Shown in pieces: positions 8,240 to 34,615 of a stretch of DNA of 64,000 nucleotides. Where the stretch lies: positions 7,143-71,142 of the forward strand of contig JADQBM010000067.1 in NCBI GenBank assembly GCA_016278615.1, read 5' to 3'. Each line of letters opens with the position of its first letter. Within the stretch, counting starts at the first letter, position 1. The DNA is from Clostridia bacterium. GTDB lineage: Bacteria; Bacillota; Clostridia; Peptostreptococcales; JAAYPU01. Made by a program: the position numbers and the translations under genes. Under the pieces are notes generated by a model. The model worked only from the letters and a program-made list of their open reading frames with translations. It was not told the origin of the DNA and did not search any database.

Positions 8240-9731
8240 TTAATTTCTTTCTTTTATGTCCAAGTAACATGCCTACACCAGCAAGTATTGCTGCGATACT
8301 TCCAAAAAACATTGCCATGCTATAATCTGTTTTCTGACCTGTTTGTGGTATTACTTCGACTTCTTCATAATTATTAGTAATAGTTGCCATTTCTATCTGA
8401 TCTGCTGCTACCTGTACTGTTCCTTCACCACTAACCGTCCATTCACTACTCAGACCAGTACGATTTTCTGTTACGTTATATTCCCCAGGCACTAGATCTT
8501 CCCATGTATAAGATTCGTCATGAGCAAAGGTTCTGGTTGCTGAGAAATCCTCTGGTCCGGTTACCGTGATCTCAAATGTCGGTAACGTCATATCACCAAT
8601 GTCGCCAGATACAATTTTTTCAACAGTTAATGAACCAACTGGAGTACTGTCAACTGGGGTACTGTCAACTGGAGTACTGTCATCTGAATCACTGTCATCT
8701 GAATCACTGTCATCTGAATCACTGTCATTTGAACCACTGTTATCTGAATCACTGTCATCTGAAGGACTGTATAAATTAGTGATGGTAGTTAAGTGTAGTT
8801 CATTTGCTACCACCTGTACGGCGCCTTCACCACTAACCGTCCATTCACTACTCAGACCTGTCCGATTTTCTGTTACGTTATATTCCCCAGGCACTAGATC
8901 TTCCCATGTATAATATTCGTTATGAGCAAAGGTTCTGGTTGCTGAGAAATCCTCTGGTCCGGTTACCGTAATCTCAAATGTCGGCAACGTCATATCGCCA
9001 ATGTCGCCAGTTACAATTTTTCTAACGGTTAATGAGCTGGATGTCCCTGTAGTTATAGTATTGTTGTCTAATGTAACTGCACCAACCATTGCTAACAACT
9101 GTCCTTTTATTTTCGCACCGGTAGTCGCTGTAATTGATTCCGATGAAAGGATATTCCCTACGAATTCAGAATTTGTCCCTAATGTAGCGGAGCTTCCAAC
9201 GGCCCAGAATATGTTGTTGTAATTAGCACCATTAATGAGCTCAACCTTACTACCTGACATAGTAGTCAGAGTAGACCCAGCTTGCAATATAAAGACAGCA
9301 TTGTTGTTGTTTTGACCATCAAGCGTAAGAGTGCCTGTGATTTGTAACTCCGTAGCTGAACTGTAAACACCAGGTGTTAAGGTTGTTCCACCAAGCTCAG
9401 CGCTGATGGCATTGCTCGTTCTAACAGTAGCATCGTTATATGCGGCTAACAGGTCATTCTTGGCCTGTAGTGCTACAGCATCAGCAATATGTACTTCCCC
9501 ACTCACGATCGCTGGTCCCTGCCCACTGAACACAGTCCCTGGGTGCAAGCCAACATCTCCGTCGATTATTGTGTTTCCCGTATTCGTAATTGTCGAACCT
9601 GCTAACACAGCAAAGCTATCCGCTGTTCCAAGATTCACAGTTGTTTCAATTGCCATACTCACAGGCGTAATCATCATAATTACCAGTAATATTAATAGTG
9701 TTAATGATATCGTTTTATTGAAATTCCTCAT
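8232..9731 (-). CDS. Sortase-anchored surface protein with an N-terminal ice-binding-like (DUF3494) beta-helix, two duplicated Ig-like domains and an SD-rich linker
   Basis: 499-aa ORF with a signal peptide. LGTADSFAVLAGSTITNTGNTIIDGDVGLHPGT is typical of DUF3494/ice-binding-like proteins. Two roughly 90-aa near-identical repeats are present. The linker is SDDSDSDNSGSNDSDSDDSDSDDSDSDDSTPVDSTPVDSTPV. The C-terminal sorting signal is IPQTG (8337-8351), then a hydrophobic helix, then HKRKK. Confidence 0.85.
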   Translation of the reverse strand: MRNFNKTISLTLLILLVIMMITPVSMAIETTVNLGTADSFAVLAGSTITNTGNTIIDGDVGLHPGTVFSGQGPAIVSGEVHIADAVALQAKNDLLAAYNDATVRTSNAISAELGGTTLTPGVYSSATELQITGTLTLDGQNNNNAVFILQAGSTLTTMSGSKVELINGANYNNIFWAVGSSATLGTNSEFVGNILSSESITATTGAKIKGQLLAMVGAVTLDNNTITTGTSSSLTVRKIVTGDIGDMTLPTFEITVTGPEDFSATRTFAHNEYYTWEDLVPGEYNVTENRTGLSSEWTVSGEGAVQVVANELHLTTITNLYSPSDDSDSDNSGSNDSDSDDSDSDDSDSDDSTPVDSTPVDSTPVGSLTVEKIVSGDIGDMTLPTFEITVTGPEDFSATRTFAHDESYTWEDLVPGEYNVTENRTGLSSEWTVSGEGTVQVAADQIEMATITNNYEEVEVIPQTGQKTDYSMAMFFGSIAAILAGVGMLLGHKRKKLNE

Positions 9732-23650: not shown

Positions 23651-23666
23651 TGTTTCACGTGAAACA
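23651..23666. promoter_or_regulatory. parS: parS centromere-like site (perfect palindrome)
   Basis: TGTTTCACGTGAAACA matches the Firmicute parS consensus TGTTNCACGTGAAACA. It lies about 85 nt downstream of the spo0J/parB stop. Confidence 0.85.
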
Positions 23667-23748: not shown

Positions 23749-24612
23749 CTATTCTTCCACAGATTTAATCATTTCAATTAGTCTTTCCAGCTCATCCTGG
23801 CTATAATATTCTATCTCTATCTTTCCTTTTTTACCACCATGATTAATGGTAACTTTTGTGCCTAGTATTCTCTTTAAATCATCCTCTATGCTGAATATTT
23901 CGGGGTCTTGTATCTTTCTTTTCTTTGGTCTTATTTTCGTTTGTTTTTTATTACTTGCTGCCATTTCTATTTGTCTTACAGATAGACCTTTTTCCACGAT
24001 TTCCGATGCCAAAACTCTCTGAACATCTTTATCTTCTATGTTAATAAGTGCTCTTGCATGTCCACTGGATATTTTGTTTTCTAAAATCATACCTTGAATG
24101 TCTTCTGAAAGTTTAAGTAGTCTAAGAGAGTTTGTAATATAAGGCCTGCTTTTCCCAACATTTTTTGAGACGTCTTCTTGCCTCATACCATAGGATTTAA
24201 TCATATACTCAAATGCTTTAGATTCTTCCAGGGGATTTAAATCCTCTCTTTGTAGGTTTTCGATTATGGAAACGAGCATGTGATGTTTCTCATCAATGTT
24301 TTTAATGATGCATGGCATCTCTTTCAAAGCTGCCTTTCTTGCAGCACGCCATCTTCTCTCTCCAGCAATGATTTCATATCCCACATCTGTAGATTTCACC
24401 AAAATAGGTTGAATGACGCCATGAATTTTTATAGAGTCTGACAATTCATCAATTTTGTCTGATTTAAATATTTTTCTTGGTTGATTCTGATTTGGAGAGA
24501 TTTTGTTAATATCAATATACATGATATCCGTATCATCATCCTTATTAATTTTAATATCCGTAAATAGGGCTTCAAGTCCTTTTCCTAAACCCCGACTTTT
24601 ATTGGCTGCCAT
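23749..24612 (-). CDS. spo0J: Chromosome partitioning protein ParB/Spo0J
   Basis: 287-aa ORF. ParB box GERRWRAA and the HTH QEDVSKNVGKSRPYITNSLRLLKL. Adjacent to soj. Confidence 0.93.
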   Translation of the reverse strand: MAANKSRGLGKGLEALFTDIKINKDDDTDIMYIDINKISPNQNQPRKIFKSDKIDELSDSIKIHGVIQPILVKSTDVGYEIIAGERRWRAARKAALKEMPCIIKNIDEKHHMLVSIIENLQREDLNPLEESKAFEYMIKSYGMRQEDVSKNVGKSRPYITNSLRLLKLSEDIQGMILENKISSGHARALINIEDKDVQRVLASEIVEKGLSVRQIEMAASNKKQTKIRPKKRKIQDPEIFSIEDDLKRILGTKVTINHGGKKGKIEIEYYSQDELERLIEMIKSVEE

Positions 24613-25388
24613 TACTTCTTCTCTCCTTCAAGTTCTAAAAATTCATCAGCAAAGTCAAGGTATGCCTCAGCTCCTTTTGACTTTGGATCATATTCTACAA
24701 TGGGAAGCCCGTAACTAGGGGCTTCTGCAAGTCTCACGTTTCGGGGTATAATGGTAGTATATACTTTTTCCTTAAAATATTTTTTGACTTCCTCAACAAC
24801 TTGTATGGATAAATTAGTTCTTCCATCAAACATACTAAGAATGACGCCTTGGATTTCAAGATTTGGATTTAAATTTCTTTTAACCAGATCAACTGTACTC
24901 ATTAATTGGCTAACGCCTTCCAATGCATAGAACTCGCATTGAATGGGTATCAAAACACTATCAACTGCTGTTAATGAATTAATAGTTAGTAGACCTAAAG
25001 AAGGCGGACAATCAATAAAAGTATAATCATAATCTTGCTTTATGGCTTCAATAACTTTTTTTAGCCTCTTCTCCCTTGCTTCCATTTCTACTAACTCTAT
25101 TTCTGCTCCAGCCAACTTAACACTTGACGGAATAATATCAAGGTTTTTAATACAAGTTGGCAAAACAGCTTCTTTTGGATGAAGTGTATCATTAATTAAA
25201 ATTTCATAAATAGACAAGTCCAGAGTTTTTTTATCAATACCGATCCCACTGGTTGTGTTCCCCTGAGGGTCAATATCTATAATAAGAACCTTTTTTCCTT
25301 TAGAAGCCAAGCACGCACCTAAATTAATGTTCGTGGTTGTTTTTCCAACGCCGCCCTTTTGGTTGAAAATTGCAATTGCTTTACCCAA
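24612..25388 (-). CDS. soj: Chromosome partitioning ATPase ParA/Soj
   Basis: 258-aa ORF. Deviant Walker A NQKGGVGKTTT. TTG start with GAGGTGA 6 nt upstream. The stop overlaps the spo0J start by 1 nt. Confidence 0.93.
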   Translation of the reverse strand: MGKAIAIFNQKGGVGKTTTNINLGACLASKGKKVLIIDIDPQGNTTSGIGIDKKTLDLSIYEILINDTLHPKEAVLPTCIKNLDIIPSSVKLAGAEIELVEMEAREKRLKKVIEAIKQDYDYTFIDCPPSLGLLTINSLTAVDSVLIPIQCEFYALEGVSQLMSTVDLVKRNLNPNLEIQGVILSMFDGRTNLSIQVVEEVKKYFKEKVYTTIIPRNVRLAEAPSYGLPIVEYDPKSKGAEAYLDFADEFLELEGEKK

Positions 25389-25473
25389 AATCCATCACCT
25401 CATTTTATCTATATTTGTAACTATAATTCTATTATAAATCATAATTGAAAATTTTGCTAACTCATTTAAAAAA

Positions 25474-25489
25474 AGTGGCTAGCGCCACT
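25474..25489 (-). terminator. Short intrinsic terminator-like hairpin at the 3' edge of the GC-rich island
   Basis: The minus strand reads AGTGGC-GCTA-GCCACT followed by T7 (the plus-strand A run at 25468-25474). Confidence 0.5.
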
Positions 25490-25641
25490 CCGCTAGGGAA
25501 CCCACCGGCTTCACCTCCGACTCGCTGCGCTCCCTGCTGTCCGTTTTACCTAGCCAAGCAAGCTTGGGGTAAAAAGGCTATGGTTCCCTTCGGCACTGCA
25601 CCCTCCTTAATCGGCAAAGGAGTATCCCCTCTGCACTCCCC
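25490..25641 (-). ncRNA. Candidate structured RNA (unclassified GC-rich island in the noc-soj spacer); strand tentative
   Basis: Hand count gives 88/150 G+C (about 59%), against about 25% in flanking spacer. Nested helices are GGGAACC(25496-25502)/GGTTCCC(25582-25588), TTTTACC(25544-25550)/GGTAAAA(25568-25574), CCAAG-CAAG-CTTGG (25554-25567) and CTCCTT(25603-25608)/AAGGAG(25617-25622). There is no plausible coding frame. Confidence 0.35.
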
Positions 25642-25686
25642 TTTTTTGTATAATAGAAAATCGATATTTCCTATTATACAAAAAAA
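25642..25686. repeat. 15-bp-arm AT-rich perfect palindrome
   Basis: TTTTTTGTATAATAG, a 14-nt loop containing ATCGAT, then CTATTATACAAAAAA. Each arm contains TGTATAAT (-10-like) reading outward on either strand. Confidence 0.7.
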
Positions 25687-25719
25687 TGTTTCATGTGAAA
25701 CACTAGTTTCACGTGAAAG
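25686..25719. promoter_or_regulatory. Two adjacent degenerate parS-like sites
   Basis: TGTTTCATGTGAAACA (25686-25701) has 1 mismatch to parS. AGTTTCACGTGAAAGA (25704-25719) keeps the core and has 2 outer mismatches. The second overlaps the noc stop codon region. Confidence 0.6.
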
Positions 25720-26530
25720 AAGGATTGCTTTTTTTTGTTTCGCTTTTGGGAATTCGGATTGTAATCTCCATATAGTTACCATTATCACTCTGATTATATT
25801 CTGCATTCTTTTCTACTTCTTTTATTGTATTAAAAGCTTTTTTTAATGTATTAATGTATATGTTATAGTGAATATGTTTGGTTATTGCCGTCTTTTTTCG
25901 ATAATGTCCATGGTCTTTTATTACAGATTCAATAAGAAGCTCTGTTTCGTATACATTGAGATTTTTGTCAACAACCTCATTTAATACGTTGTGAATCTCT
26001 ATATGATCTGGAATTTTTAAAAATGCACGCGCATGCCTTTCAGTTAACCCATTTCCCAATAGTTGTCTTTGTATCTCCTCTGGCAAATTAAGAAGTCTCA
26101 TTTTATTAGATACAGTGGATTGATTTTTTCCAACCGTATCAGCTATTTCTTTTTGCGTTAATTGATATACTTCTACTAAGTTTTTATAGGCATAGGCTTC
26201 CTCTATAAAATTTAAATTTTCTCTCTGAATGTTTTCAACTAAGGACCACAACGCCATATCCTGACTATTAATCTCTTTAATAATAACCGGTACCTTAGAC
26301 AACCCTGCAAGCTTTGCTGCTCTCCATCTTCTTTCCCCTGCAATAAGATGAAAAGTTTTATCGTTTATTCGTTTTGCAATTATTGGCTGTAAGACGCCAA
26401 TTTTTTTAATAGAGTCCGATAATTCTATTAATTCCTTTTCGCTAAATACGCGTCGAGGCTGATCTGGATTAGGGTTAATGTCCTCTACAGAAACCTCTTG
26501 TATTTCATTTTTTTTTGCATTAAAAAACAT
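25709..26530 (-). CDS. noc: ParB-family nucleoid occlusion protein Noc-like
   Basis: 273-aa ORF. ParB box GERRWRAA and the HTH QKEIADTVGKNQSTVSNKMRLLNL. The position between rsmG and soj matches Bacillus noc. Confidence 0.8.
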   Translation of the reverse strand: MFFNAKKNEIQEVSVEDINPNPDQPRRVFSEKELIELSDSIKKIGVLQPIIAKRINDKTFHLIAGERRWRAAKLAGLSKVPVIIKEINSQDMALWSLVENIQRENLNFIEEAYAYKNLVEVYQLTQKEIADTVGKNQSTVSNKMRLLNLPEEIQRQLLGNGLTERHARAFLKIPDHIEIHNVLNEVVDKNLNVYETELLIESVIKDHGHYRKKTAITKHIHYNIYINTLKKAFNTIKEVEKNAEYNQSDNGNYMEITIRIPKSETKKSNPSFT

Positions 26531-26613: not shown

Positions 26614-27339
26614 TCACTTTAAGGGGGTTTTTATAGGATTTCCTGCTTTTCTGGGATATTCTAAAGGTGTATGGGTTATTTTCTGTATGTAGATAATCTG
26701 ATGCTCTAATGGAAAATGTGACAACGGTGTTTTTTCTTCTTTTTCAATCTTACCACCTAAAAGCCTAATGGCCTTTTGGCTGTCTCTTATTTCGCTTTCC
26801 ACTTGGCTACTTTTATATGCCGCAAAAGTGCCGCCAATTTTTACAAAAGGTAAACAATATTCACTTAAAACATTCAATTTTGCTACCGCTCTTGATAAAC
26901 ATAAGTCGTATTTCTCACGATGCATTACGTTTTTTCCAAGATCTTCAGCTCTTCCATGAAGTACTTTTACATTGGAGAGGTTAAGTTTTTGAATAACTTC
27001 CGTAAGAAAATTAATTTTTTTGTTCAATGAATCAACTAATAGAAATTGTTTATCTGGCAAAATGATACTTAATGGTATTCCAGGGAAACCAGCTCCCGTG
27101 CCGATGTCTATGATATTTTGAAAAGTGCCCATCTTTGGATGAGAGACGCAAACAATAGAATCTATAAAATGTTTGATGATGAAATCTCTTTCATCAATAA
27201 TGGATGTTAAATTGATCTTTTCATTCCATTCCATAACCATCTGTCTATAAATGGTGAACTTTTCAAGAGTTTGTGGTTTAATTTCAACCTTTAGCTCTTC
27301 TAAAGCATTTTGCAATAAATCTATATGATTAATGATCAT
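26614..27339 (-). CDS. rsmG: 16S rRNA (guanine527-N7)-methyltransferase RsmG (GidB)
   Basis: 241-aa ORF with the SAM motif [15 protein letters not shown]. Overlaps the mnmG stop by 4 nt. Canonical synteny. Confidence 0.93.
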
Positions 27340-29222
27340 CCCTCCTTCTTTCTTCTTTCTCTTTCAAGATTAATTAATAATACATTTATATCTGCAGGAG
27401 AGACCCCAGAAATTCTAGAAGCTTGTCCAACAGATAACGGTTTAAAAGTATTTAGTTTTTGTTGAGCTTCAATACGTAATCCTTCGATTTTAGTATAATC
27501 CAAATCTGAGCTAAGTTGTCTCTTTTCAAGCTTTTTAAATTTTTCAACTTGCGCCATTTGCTTTCCTATATATCCAGAATACTTTATTTGAATTTCTATT
27601 TGTTCACCTATTCTTATGTCTAATTCCGGTCTATTCTTATCGATTTCACTTAGAGCGCTATATGTGATTTCCGGCCTTTTAAGTAATTCTAAAAGGGTAA
27701 CTCGATTATTAACAGGACTGCTATTATATTTTTCTAAAAATGGATTAATTTCCTTAGGAACGATGTAAGTGCTTTTAATTCTATCCATTTCTTCATTAAT
27801 CTTGTCTTTTTTATAAACAAACTTTTTGTATCGCTCATCATTTATAAGTCCTATCTCATATCCCTTTTCAGTGAGTCTCAAATCGGCATTGTCCTGCCTC
27901 AATATAAGCCTATATTCTGCCCTTGAAGTCATAATTCTATAAGGTTCATTGGTTCCTTTTGTCACCAAATCGTCGATTAATACGCCGATATAACCTTCTG
28001 ATCGGTCTATAATGAAAGGGTCTTGTTCCTTGATTTTTAAAGCAGCATTGATACCGGCCATTAATCCTTGTGCTGCTGCTTCTTCATACCCTGAACTCCC
28101 ATTAAACTGACCTGCACAAAACAAGTTATTAAAATTTTTATGTTCCAAAGTGAGCTTTAAATCAATAGGATTAATGCAATCGTATTCTATTGCATATGCT
28201 GAACGGACAATTTTAGCATTTTCCAAACCTTGAATGGTTCTATAGAACTTTTCCTGCACATCTTCCGGCAAGCTGGTGGACATACCTTGAATGTAAACCT
28301 CATCTGTATCCAAACCTTCAGGTTCAATAAATAATTGGTGTCTTTCCTTATCAGCAAATCGAACCAACTTATCCTCTATGGAAGGGCAATACCGCGGCCC
28401 TACCCCTTCTATTTGTCCGCCATATAATGCGGAACGATTAATATTGTCTAAAATAACGGAATGAGTCTCTTTATTGGTATAGGTCAACCAACAAGAAACC
28501 CTGCTTTTGTGAAGATTATCATTAGTGAATGAAAAAGGAATCGTTTCTTCATCACCAGGCTGTTCTTGCATTTTTTCATAATTTAAAGTTTTACCATCTA
28601 CCCTTGCAGGGGTACCCGTTTTAAATCTCCTAAGAGAAAGACCATGCTTTTTAAGATTATCTGATAGTTCAAGAGAAGCCGAAAGACCACTGGGGCCTCC
28701 CTCATAACTCCATTCACCCAGAAAGATTCTCCCTTTAAGGAAGGTTCCTGTTGCTAAAATGACTGCTTTTGTTTCATAAAAAGCACCTGTCCTTGTAATA
28801 ACCCCTTTTACGGTTTGATCTTCAATAAATAAATCAACGACTTCTCCCTGCTTGATGTCTAAATTCTCTTGTCTTTCTAAAACCTTTTTCATTTCCGTAT
28901 GATATAAATGCTTGTCAGCTTGCATCCGCAGTGAATGAACCGCAGGACCTTTAGCAGTATTTAGCATTCTTGATTGTATAGAAGCTTTGTCAATATTGAT
29001 TCCCATTTCACCGCCAAGGGCATCGATTTCTCTAACAAGGTGAGCCTTTCCCGTAGCGCCTACAGAAGGGTTACAGGCCATCATTGCAATGGATTCTAAG
29101 TTAATTGAAAATACCAATGTGTTTAATCCCAACCGAGCAGAAGATAATGCAGCTTCACACCCTGCATGTCCGGCTCCTACAACTATGACATCATATTTTC
29201 CCATATAAAAGTTTTTAGTCAT
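27336..29222 (-). CDS. mnmG: tRNA uridine 5-carboxymethylaminomethyl modification enzyme MnmG (GidA)
   Basis: FAD motif [16 protein letters not shown]. The ORF track starts at 29234 (GTG). The ATG at 29222 has a GGTGGA RBS. About 628 aa. Confidence 0.95.
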
Positions 29223-29247
29223 TTTCACATCCACCCACTATATTATT

Positions 29248-32359: not shown

Positions 32360-32703
32360 ATTTCTTTACCTGAAAATAATTTAATTTTTCTTAATAGTAA
32401 TTCAGTAGATTTTACCAATTCAGTAAATTTTACATCATTGATATTTTTTCTGGCAATAAATATTAAATCATATCCCTTACATAATTTATTTTTATATAAA
32501 AGATGTATTTCTTTCATGCGTCTTTTTGCTTTATTTCTTATAACACTTTTCCCTACTTTTTTACTTGCAAGAAATGCAGTTCTATTATATCCTAAATTAT
32601 TTTTTTTATAAAAAATAACAATGTGCTTTGAAGCTACTGATCTCCCACTTTTATAAATAATTGAAAAATCCTTATTTCTCCTTAGGATATTGGTTTTTAA
32701 CAT
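32356..32703 (-). CDS. rnpA: Ribonuclease P protein component
   Basis: 115-aa basic [21 protein letters not shown] is an RNR-motif-like sequence. Downstream of rpmH. Confidence 0.92.
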
Positions 32704-32740
32704 TTAAATGGGCCTTCTTTCAAAAAATTAAAAATTTTTT

Positions 32741-32769
32741 AAACAAAAAGACCACTTAATAGCGGTCTT
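32741..32769 (-). terminator. Hairpin plus U-run between rpmH and rnpA (attenuator/terminator)
   Basis: The minus strand reads AAGACCGCTATTAAGTGGTCTT followed by TTTGTTT. It overlaps the rpmH stop codon. Confidence 0.55.
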
Positions 32770-32902
32770 ATGCTGTTAATTTCTTTCTACCTCTAAATCT
32801 TCTTCTTTTTAAAAGATTACGTCCAGCCTTTGTACTCATTCTTTTTCTGAAACCATGTTCTTTACTTCTGTGTCTCTTTTTTGGTTGAAATGTCATTTTC
32901 AT
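32768..32902 (-). CDS. rpmH: 50S ribosomal protein L34
   Basis: This ORF is absent from the ORF track because it is under 60 aa. My translation is [44 protein letters not shown] (44 aa). GGAGGTG RBS lies 8 nt upstream. Confidence 0.93.
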
Positions 32903-32905
32903 TTT

Positions 32906-33271
32906 ATATACACCTCCTACTATTGCTATTTATATAAAGATTGAAATTCCAAAAACATTGCTTAGTTATTATACCTTTGAAAAATAATGCTGTCAATAAA
33001 GATGTCCAAGAATTATCATGAAACAATGTTAAATTTTTTAATCCAAAATATTCACTTTTGTAAATACACCAAGATGTTGATATGTTTAAAAGTTATTAAC
33101 AAGATGTTGATAACTTTCGGGATAGTTAAACTTTTTTGATTTTTTTTATAAATTTGTTTTAGATTTCTGTGGATAACATGCTATAATGTTAGTACTGATT
33201 TTTACTTTTATACTTTTTTTCCACTGTTTTTTTTTACTATTTTTTTCATATAAATCTGTAAGGGGGCAAAC
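32906..33271. other. oriC: oriC, upstream (rpmH-dnaA) part, with DnaA boxes and the dnaA promoter
   Basis: Perfect DnaA box TGTGGATAA at 33168-33176. A 1-mismatch box TGTTGATAA at 33105-33113 and a 2-mismatch box at 33075-33083. The 13-nt repeat CAAGATGTTGATA occurs at 33070 and 33100, 30 bp apart. Gene orientation switches here. Confidence 0.8.
33179..33187 (+). promoter_or_regulatory. Extended -10 element (TGcTATAAT) of a dnaA promoter abutting the perfect DnaA box
   Basis: TGCTATAAT lies 3 nt downstream of TGTGGATAA and about 85 nt upstream of the dnaA ATG. Confidence 0.5.
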
Positions 33272-34615
33272 ATGAACGATCAAATCAATAACATTTGGGA
33301 CAAGGCCTTAAACATTATTAAGCCTGAAATTACAGAAATCAGTTTTAATACATGGATGATCCCAATAAAACCAATTTCTATAAATTTAGAAAAAGAAAAA
33401 ATGACCTTTTCTATATATAGTGATTTTGCAAAAGGAATTATCGAAACGCGGTATTTAAATCTAATACAAAATGCGATTAAACAAGTATCTGGCAAGAACT
33501 ATCAAGTTGTTTGTATATCATCCGAAGGAAATGTACCTACAGATGATTCTCCCATAAATCATTATAACGAAAGTGTAACCGATGATTTATATCTAAATCC
33601 TAAATATATTTTTGAAACTTTTGTAATAGGTAGCAGCAATCGTTTTGCCCATGCAGCTTCTTTAGCTGTCGCAGAAACACCAGCAAAAGCCTATAATCCT
33701 TTATTTATTTATGGTGGTGTTGGATTAGGCAAAACGCATTTAATGCACGCTATTGGCCATTACATAATTAAAAATAATCCAAATTCTAAAGTCCTATATG
33801 TTTCATCAGAAAAATTTACAAACGAATTAATAAACGCAATAAAAGATGATAAAAATCCTGAATTTAGAAATAAGTTCAGAAATATTGATGTTCTACTTAT
33901 AGATGATATTCAATTTATTGCTGGAAAGGAAAGAACTCAAGAAGAATTCTTTCATACCTTTAATACTTTATATGAAGCCAATAAACAAATAATTTTGTCT
34001 AGTGATCGTCCTCCTAAAGAAATTCCTACTCTAGAGGAACGATTAAGATCAAGATTCGAATGGGGTCTCATTGCAGATATTCAAGCACCTGATTATGAAA
34101 CAAGAGTTGCTATTTTGAGAAAGAAAGCAGAAATCGAAGGGATTCAGGTAACCGAGGAATTAACAGAAGTAATAGAGTTTATTGCAGAAAAAATACAATC
34201 TAATATTCGTGAGCTAGAAGGGGCTCTCATTAGAATTGTAGCTTATGCTTCTTTGACCAATAAAGTTATTAATAAACCTTTAGCAAAAGAAGCTTTACAA
34301 GATATATTCTCTTCACAAAATCGTAAAATAACACCAAAACTTGTTAAAGATTGTGTTGCAAAATATTTTAATTTGAAAATCTCTGACCTGGAGTCAAAAA
34401 AAAGATCTCAGAACATTACTTTTCCAAGACATATTGCCATGTATATTTGCAGAGAAATGACCGATTTATCTCTTCCAAAGCTTGGCGAAACTTTTGGAGG
34501 AAGAGATCATACAACTGTACTTCATGCGGTTGAAAAAATATCTAAAGAAAAAAAATTCAACAATAGTTTAAATGAAATATTAAAAAGTATAATAGAAGAT
34601 ATTAAATCTAATTGA
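33272..34615 (+). CDS. dnaA: Chromosomal replication initiator DnaA
   Basis: 447-aa ORF. AAA+ Walker [16 protein letters not shown], Walker B LLIDDIQF, and domain IV HTH ([12 protein letters not shown]). Confidence 0.98.

Follow-up and report, generated by a model that had tools for sequence, protein, structure and literature searches.

The noc-soj spacer and its GC-rich block

We analysed the intergenic spacer between noc and soj in a 64-kb window, i.e. the whole 64,000-nt stretch of contig JADQBM010000067.1 from a Clostridia bacterium, where an original prediction, made from the sequence alone, had placed an unclassified structured RNA. The element found there belongs to the family of Clostridiales-2 RNA. 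The local genes are all encoded on the minus strand:

23749-24612, minus strand: spo0J
24612-25388, minus strand: soj
25709-26530, minus strand: noc
26614-27339, minus strand: rsmG
27336-29234, minus strand: mnmG

With noc ending at 25709 and soj starting at 25388, the spacer measures 320 bp. The segment 25482-25631 has a G+C content of 59.3%, more than any other 150-nt stretch of the window (mean 33.3%, runner-up 52.7%), so that the predicted spacer of about 320 bp with a block of about 59% G+C was borne out. The two open reading frames (ORFs) that overlap this block gave no Pfam match, in agreement with the non-coding character proposed for it. A coding reading of the block was dropped on account of these ORFs and of the length of the variable hairpin P2 of the family, which is not a multiple of three. 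A 9-codon ORF following the Shine-Dalgarno (SD)-like motif of the element was dropped as well, being seen in some subfamilies only.

The element is a divergent copy of Clostridiales-2 RNA

On the minus strand, 25583-25648 matches the Rfam family RF02937 (Clostridiales-2 RNA) over model positions 1-82 with a score of 54.9 bits. The E value is 1.4e-12 in a search of the spacer and 2.2e-10 over the whole window, where this is the sole match in E-value mode. The structured element is therefore real, while the proposal that it is a novel, unclassified RNA had to be given up. The gathering score of RF02937 is 58.6 bits, the window copy lying 3.7 bits below it; at gathering thresholds Rfam gave no matches over the whole window, and only the E-value mode exposed RF02937. 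The sub-threshold score is due to the loss of hairpin P2 by a 15-nt deletion, 18 model positions corresponding to this hairpin being replaced by 3 residues in the alignment.

The closest homologue, L073 (copies at other loci carry L numbers), scores 71 bits and is 94.8% identical to the window copy over 173 aligned nt, with one clean 15-nt gap. The window copy is also 88-94% identical to L086 and L051 (84 and 89 bits), L085 and L038, and all 16 copies tested elsewhere (16 loci) exceed the Rfam threshold with 70-94 bits. Considering the identity to L073 and the clean deletion of P2, the window copy is homologous to bona fide, threshold-passing members of the family. It presents the GC-rich hairpin P1 of about 9 bp at the 5' end (GCAGAGGGG/CUCCUUUGC, 25634-25614), and both the conserved unpaired segment UUAAGGAGGGUGC and the 3' segment CGAAGGGAAC are exact; the variable P2 between the conserved segments is missing, with AGUGC remaining in its place. 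As judged from these alignments, the window copy is a member of RF02937 by descent, degenerate or divergent and not canonical, and its loss of P2 is derived. It shares with the family P1, the UUAAGGAGGGUGC and CGAAGGGAAC segments and the range in Clostridia, and differs by the absence of P2 and by a 79-nt domain in the loop of helix P3.

Rfam lists RF02937 as Gene; sRNA (small RNA), without a function. The motif comes from Weinberg et al. 2017 (PMC5737381), where it is described in the supplement. As the name of an RNA, 'Clostridiales-2' is absent from the searchable full texts, and the main text of the 2017 paper carries no mention of it.

Anatomy of the window copy

The whole unit in the window spans 25468-25686 on the minus strand and is composed as follows:

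25642..25686, minus strand: P0, an AT-rich palindrome forming the 5' module (arms 25679-25666 and 25661-25648, loop ATCG)
25686-25680 and 25647-25642, minus strand: extension of P0 by pairing of T7 with A6; conserved core TAGGAAA/TTTCCTA
25641-25638, minus strand: conserved GGGG before P1
25614..25634, minus strand: P1 hairpin GCAGAGGGG-AUA-CUCCUUUGC, present in the minimum free energy (MFE) fold and aligned to paired columns of the model
25598..25610, minus strand: single-stranded SD-like segment UUAAGGAGGGUGC, also conserved in the Rfam consensus
25593..25597, minus strand: P2 scar, AGUGC only (15-nt deletion compared to L073)
25593-25591, minus strand: 5' strand of P3a, CCG, from covariation and fold
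25589-25582, minus strand: 5' strand of P3, AGGGAACC; P3 is 98% paired in the family and the window fold agrees
25503..25581, minus strand: 79-nt insertion in the P3 loop ('long variant')
25502-25495, minus strand: 3' strand of P3, GGUUCCCU
25492-25490, minus strand: 3' strand of P3a, CGG
25468..25489, minus strand: the unit's own predicted intrinsic terminator, AGUGGC-GCUA-GCCAC followed by U7 (25474-25468), at the 3' end

The helices listed in the original prediction are all present, namely GGGAACC (25496-25502) with GGTTCCC (25582-25588), TTTTACC/GGTAAAA around CCAAG-CAAG-CTTGG, and CTCCTT/AAGGAG. The palindrome containing TGTATAAT was located at 25642-25686, and the minus-strand terminator AGTGGC-GCTA-GCCACT with T7 coincides with a terminator-like site called at 25491..25472. 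The case of the CTCCTT/AAGGAG hairpin is different: it can form, but the conserved pairing of the family is P1, in which CUCCUUUGC pairs with GCAGAGGGG and leaves AAGGAG in the single-stranded segment. Folded as a single sequence, the element only marginally beats its shuffles (z of -1.96 for the minus and -0.33 for the plus strand), and the case for structure rests for this reason on comparative data.

In the window, CUCCUU, which is the 3' strand of P1, is also able to pair perfectly, within 25603-25622, with AAGGAG of the conserved SD-like segment. This is the hairpin of the original prediction, and it means that formation of P1 and sequestration of the SD-like segment are mutually exclusive there; in most other copies this alternative pairing spans just 4 bp. 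P0 was also considered as a terminator and rejected, since both strands read T-run, hairpin, A-run and no T-run follows the hairpin.

Extent and structure of the family-wide unit

Using the exact scan pattern TTAAGGAGGGTGC-N(1-30)-CGAAGGGAAC and one genome per species, we located 81 copies, which come from about 35 genomes of Clostridia. Read from 5' to 3' along the sense strand, the unit consists of P0, GGGG, P1, UUAAGGAGGGUGC(UCAG), P2, P3a/P3 and a simple intrinsic terminator, the consensus of P3a/P3 being (U/C)CG-AA-GGGAACC, a loop AUAG or AUAA, and GGUUCCC-UAG-CG(A/G). When 24 copies of one metagenome-assembled genome (MAG) were aligned with their full flanks, the similarity extended from the T-run before P0 to the unit's own T-run, over about 190 bp. 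The 82-nt Rfam model is a fragment of this repeated unit of about 190-220 bp: its 82 positions end in the 5' strand of P3 and include neither P0, nor the 3' strand of P3, P3a and the terminator.

The structure was tested on 41 diverse short-form copies and 26 pairs. In these pairs, 91% of the cells were paired, compared to 80% in shuffles (none of 500 as high) and 39-56% with slid partners. For P1, 8 of 9 pairs change on both sides in a compensatory way, even in an alignment based on sequence only, and P2, whose sequence is variable, shows compensatory changes at 4 of its 5 pairs. P3a, a 3-bp helix that closes P3 and lies outside the Rfam model, presents at pair 74-102 U-A in 35 copies, C-G in 5 and U-G in 1. 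P3 hardly varies, partly since its 5' strand belonged to the search pattern, and the invariance of UUAAGGAGGGUGC in alignment A1 is likewise due in part to ascertainment by that pattern; the unpaired invariant stretch measures 13-17 nt. In 67 of 69 unique cores the sense strand gives a more stable fold than the antisense strand, by 5.4 kcal/mol on average, so that G-U pairs contribute to the core pairing on the strand corresponding to the window's minus strand. These data point to a core structure that acts as RNA, or at least as the sense single strand.

In other genomes, most full-length copies are preceded by P0, which is often extended by pairing of a 5' T-run with a 3' A-run. In 38 unique sequences about 97% of its pairing is Watson-Crick, and the outer positions are occupied by several types of pair, of which some coexist in a single genome; its loop is 3-32 nt long and no clear G-U strand bias is seen. 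P0 is a hairpin-forming palindrome that may act at the DNA or at the RNA level. In one subfamily from Bacillota and Acetivibrio MAGs (L006, L014, L020, L022, L026, L040, L046, L059, L064 and L081), P0 has a loop of 17-32 nt and no flanking T-run, and a long 3' extension closed by CAAGAAAATTCGC...GCGAATTTTCTTG takes the place of the simple terminator.

The 79-nt domain of the long variant

Short copies have only AUAG or AUAA in the P3 loop, to which the window copy adds 79 nt (25581-25503). This insertion explains the long-range 7-bp helix enclosing a hairpin that had been noticed in the window sequence, and all six long-variant homologues can accommodate that helix and its nested hairpins. The long variant is also present in L038, L051, L073, L085 and L086 and is truncated in L039; it is rare, as a dedicated metagenome scan yielded two further examples only. 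Two hairpins can be drawn in the domain, the middle part of which is poorly defined:

25575-25544, minus strand: hairpin UUUUUACC/GGUAAAA enclosing CCAAG-CUUG-CUUGG
25515-25507, minus strand: hairpin GGU-GAA-GCC, bearing a second SD-like motif GGAGGUGA

This structure, drawn by hand, is 95.7% paired in the six sequences, with two compensatory changes only. RNAalifold and the MFE fold instead pair UUUUUACC with the second SD-like GGAGGUGAAG, in a long-range fold. The window UUUUUACC reads UUUUUGCC in the other long copies, a single A-to-G change that fits both alternative folds. In L038, L051, L073, L085 and L086 the A of UUUUUACC, the U of GGUAAAA and the U of GGAGGUGAAG change together (to G, C and C), which supports two mutually exclusive helices. 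This joint substitution could reflect a switch, or a coincidence among six sequences.

Dispersal, copy number and gene context

Carriers of the unit include Acidaminobacter, Sinanaerobacter, Geosporobacter, Oceanirhabdus, Ruminiclostridium, Acetivibrio and many MAGs, one of which holds at least 24 copies. Copies are near-identical within a genome, including the variable stems of P2 and of the terminator, and differ between genomes. That the block might be a multi-copy repeat had been named as a danger to the original prediction; this applies to the family in other Clostridia, while the 64-kb window contains a single copy. Tandem copies are found at L053, L066, L083, L016 and L018. Shortened copies that start exactly at TTAAGGAGG are seen at L018, L054, L076 and others, some of them without P0 and P1. 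No match to the unit was found in plasmids, phages or viral contigs. A loose regular expression for solitary P0 palindromes returned mostly chance matches, and such palindromes were not retained.

Both neighbouring genes are co-oriented with the unit in 44 cases and both opposed in 6, with 10 cases between divergent genes and 9 between convergent genes; the downstream gene is co-oriented in 78% of the copies and opposite in 17 of 77. With this spread of orientations, the unit is bound neither to the position of a 5' leader nor to that of a 3' untranslated region (UTR). Ordinary Rfam features lie near some other copies. One copy has a T-box leader immediately upstream, two further features are riboswitches (c-di-GMP-I and glycine), and a cluster of tRNAs adjoins another copy (L068 1744-2042; L064 7822-7904; L007 5243-5349; L058 2674-3300).

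Contigs of independent metagenome assemblies with exactly the Noc or Soj of the window (end of L001, end of L002, start of L003) break inside the unit; the break points are the centre of P0, a site 14 nt inside P1 and the middle of the 79-nt domain. As assemblers break at repeats and palindromes, these breaks give no more than a hint of further copies or variants of the unit in those samples, and hence of more than one copy in the organism of the window.

Target sites and empty sites

At the noc end of the spacer and towards soj, the unit is bordered by the following features:

25687-25702 and 25705-25720, strand not assigned: two parS-like palindromes, TGTTTCATGTGAAACA and AGTTTCACGTGAAAGA, context at the noc 3' end
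25431..25460, minus strand: likely soj promoter TTAGCA-18-TATAAT (10/12 matches), outside the repeat unit

The parS-like pair differs from the consensus TGTTNCACGTGAAACA at 1 and 2 positions, with 0.06 matches expected by chance, and the AGTTTCACGTGAAAGA palindrome (25705-25720) overlaps the noc stop codon. Together with T7, the two palindromes form a terminator-like hairpin with a T-tract (-12.5 kcal/mol), directly adjoined by the repeat unit.

This arrangement is found again in the family. A T-run of at least 4 is present at the 5' edge of 42 of 51 unique copies with P0, and a stable hairpin (-8 kcal/mol or stronger) abuts this T-run in 29 of the 42 (69%), compared to 12.7% of control T-runs from the same loci. 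The unit therefore typically sits on the T-tract of a host intrinsic terminator, a place that is filled in the window by the parS-like palindromes at the noc end and T7. Nearly every copy has a T-run on both sides.

Relatives with Noc 58-69% identical and contigs in the order rsmG-noc-soj-spo0J were compared. Their noc-soj spacers measure about 100-130 bp and contain parS (in one case parS-parS-T8) and the soj promoter region without the unit, so that the conservation in relatives' spacers to which the original prediction had looked was not found. The TATAAT region is kept in these relatives, and in the window the soj promoter lies just downstream of the repeat unit's terminator. At a second locus, L047 of Acidaminobacter, five relatives with a flanking response regulator 86-93% identical present the terminator and T-run and no unit. 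At both loci the empty-site relatives are too diverged in the spacer for junctions to be read at base level.

Some flanks have particular features. A 15-nt direct repeat, CTCCTTTTTTATTGT, is found on both sides of L031 and replaces part of its terminator stem; L010 and L082 have a G on both sides of the unit, these three being isolated candidates for a target duplication; and in a few copies of the 24-copy MAG (right flanks of L028, L052 and L010) the terminal T-run is followed by the left arm, with or without the loop, of another P0 and by nothing beyond. The flank remnants and the L031 repeat may point to breakage in the middle of the palindrome or to repeats generated by insertion, without overall statistical support.

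Surroundings of the element

Three sites of parS type (consensus TGTTNCACGTGAAACA) are present in the window, at 23651-23666, 25687-25702 and 25705-25720. The site at 23651-23666 is perfect and lies directly downstream of spo0J, the other two are in tandem at the noc end, and relatives retain one or two parS sites after noc. The gene strand flips from minus to plus within 32703-33272 and is followed by a 447-aa ORF (33272-34615) and then a 374-aa ORF, in the positions expected for dnaA and dnaN. Before the switch the gene order is rpmH-rnpA-yidC-jag-mnmE-mnmG-rsmG-noc-soj-spo0J, the ORFs being identified from order and size. The window thus probably spans oriC, with the repeat copy about 7.6 kb away and co-oriented with the left replichore. 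Elsewhere, 8373-9035 contains a 261-nt direct repeat of 89% identity whose copies are 402 nt apart, with at least 8 tandem 15-nt units inside it at 8606-8770; a protein-coding gene with a repetitive segment is the probable explanation.

Proposed origin and role of the element

With a probability of roughly 60%, we consider the island to be a copy of a dispersed, RNA-structured clostridial repeat that has RF02937 as its core and now acts as the 3' UTR and terminator of noc. The unit would have inserted at the T-tract behind the parS palindromes that end noc. Its transcription would then occur by read-through, as the 3' end of the noc mRNA; this is probable because no recognisable sigma-70 promoter lies upstream of the unit, none having been called in or after P0 in the window. 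The transcript is predicted to fold into a multi-hairpin RNA with P1 and P3, and transcription would stop at the unit's terminator, by which noc may be insulated from the separate soj-spo0J promoter. The original prediction had left the choice between an independent sRNA and a structured 3' UTR of noc, and it is the latter that fits better, no sigma-70-type promoter having been called for the former.

Several observations weigh against this interpretation. The internal conservation of the core exceeds the needs of a purely selfish DNA repeat, and a non-sigma-70 promoter may lie within P0, the proposed read-through being itself deduced from sequence. The 64-kb window holds one copy only, no second one being found with a 20-mer allowing 3 mismatches, by blastn with word size 7 or with Rfam in E-value mode, and most genomes carry just 1-5 exact-pattern copies, a number that is also compatible with a small family of sRNA genes. 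The 650 kb of flanks contained no linked transposase and, apart from large paralogous families, no recurrent neighbour. Inspection of the consensus ends showed no terminal inverted repeats, the 5' end (T-run and ATTGTCTAGG... or GTATAATAGG...) having no inverted similarity to the 3' end (...GCCAC and T-run). Direct repeats of at least 4 bases beyond the T-run occur at the two ends of the same copy in 8.6% of cases and between different copies in 6.6%, i.e. without enrichment. Finally, the relatives compared by Noc are distant, and the unit may have been lost from them at this locus.

An independently transcribed, trans-acting sRNA gene belonging to a small family, with a promoter overlapping P0 or controlled through it, would account for part of the same data. 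In such an RNA, UUAAGGAGGGUGC would be a seed pairing with CCUCC-type anti-SD sequences, or would bind the 16S 3' end, the 30S subunit or a protein that recognises GGA, such as CsrA. The Rfam class (Gene; sRNA), a terminator of its own in almost every copy, strong covariation in a sense-strand-specific structure, the unpaired invariant segment of 13-17 nt and the 1-5 copies of most genomes are all consistent with it, and a -10-like hexamer (TACAAT, TATACT or TATTAT) is frequent in the right arm of P0, a few bases before GGGG. However, a sigma-70-like -35/-10 pair is well placed in just 7 of 72 unique copies, the window copy not being one of them, and a P0 loop varying from 3 to 32 nt would ruin a fixed -35/-10 spacing. 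Moreover, copies abut host terminators, are gained or lost between relatives and in some cases have neither P0 nor P1, and the near-identity of copies within a genome, even in variable stems, fits amplification and not old paralogy. We regard an sRNA gene, the main rival reading, as rather unlikely; it and the dispersed-repeat reading are not mutually exclusive.

The position upstream of soj on the same strand, the terminal terminator and the 78% of co-oriented downstream genes would be expected of a riboswitch or attenuator of soj-spo0J that uses the terminator as its expression platform. Such a leader is highly improbable, since the soj promoter lies downstream of the terminator and is conserved in relatives without the unit, since the downstream genes are unrelated and opposed in 17 of 77 copies, and since copies are near-identical within a genome. 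Equally slight is the chance of a chromosome-segregation site acting at the DNA level, for instance a structure associated with ParB or Noc. The two adjoining parS-like sites, the distance of about 7.6 kb from the dnaA-side strand switch and the near-perfect palindrome P0 without G-U bias speak for it, but the unit turns up in dozens of unrelated genomic settings, the noc-soj spacer of relatives is free of it, and its core pairing is strand-specific, with G-U pairs.

A more speculative view concerns how the dispersed repeat would spread. By analogy with short interspersed nuclear elements (SINEs), the Clostridiales-2 unit might be a non-autonomous mobile element propagating via its structured, terminator-ended RNA. 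This idea, which we rate as improbable, fits a 3' boundary that is always the terminator U-tract, the landing on T-tracts behind terminator hairpins, the 5'-shortened copies and the co-orientation with upstream genes that could supply transcription. The conserved core includes an almost perfect Shine-Dalgarno sequence, without a conserved ORF after it, and a selected core with this SD-like segment could recruit a reverse transcriptase or the ribosome. If true, it would be a new kind of bacterial non-autonomous mobile element.

For the annotation of the window, a candidate novel RNA is removed and the island becomes a P2-deleted Clostridiales-2 copy that would supply a terminator between noc and soj. 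The family gains an extended anatomy, amplification within genomes, siting on host-terminator T-tracts and gain or loss between related genomes. An orphan sRNA motif is thereby turned into a testable question, i.e. what moves the unit and what its SD-like core binds.

Comparison with known systems

Group IIC introns lie immediately behind terminator motifs, composed of an inverted repeat and the Ts that follow it, and mostly share the orientation of the upstream gene (PMC1702495). The Clostridiales-2 unit shares with them the target just behind a terminator stem-loop and T-run, a resemblance in target choice only: it measures about 190-220 nt and has neither ribozyme domains nor an ORF, and in 25350-25760 Rfam gave no match to group II ribozyme domains at E up to 10 and no reverse-transcriptase ORF is present.

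Like MITEs (miniature transposable elements with inverted repeats) and derivatives of the insertion sequences (IS) IS200/IS605, the unit is dispersed, non-autonomous and of small size; it has a hairpin close to either end and is biased in its orientation. It also resembles MITEs in being multi-copy (at least 24 copies in one MAG, 2-5 in several genomes), non-coding, shorter than 500 bp and devoid of a transposase. A classical MITE was rejected, as terminal inverted repeats are missing. A duplication beyond the T-run is unsupported. In contrast to IS200/IS605 derivatives, its P0 and terminator hairpins are unrelated in sequence, and the 650 kb of flanks contained no parental IS or transposase.

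Closer parallels are offered by the small interspersed repeats of pneumococci, the rho-independent-terminator-like SPRITE and the modular BOX, reviewed in PMC10969869. As these repeats, the Clostridiales-2 unit is short, non-coding, intergenic and multi-copy, forms stable RNA structures with a terminator-like hairpin, has no transposase of its own and shows optional modules and tandem or nested arrangements. It has no sequence relation to them and a different phylum-level host range, and it differs by a more strongly conserved, covarying core and by a marked preference for terminator T-tracts. The bcr1 repeat of the Bacillus cereus group is another intergenic Firmicute repeat, of about 150-190 bp, which is transcribed with its neighbours and predicted to form a stable RNA. 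It is bounded by short T/A-rich direct repeats, with a defined TTTAT duplication. Between bcr1 and the Clostridiales-2 unit there is no sequence similarity, and the two ends of the latter share the T-run only. Among these systems, the small structured Firmicutes repeats SPRITE, BOX and bcr1 come closest to the unit in behaviour.

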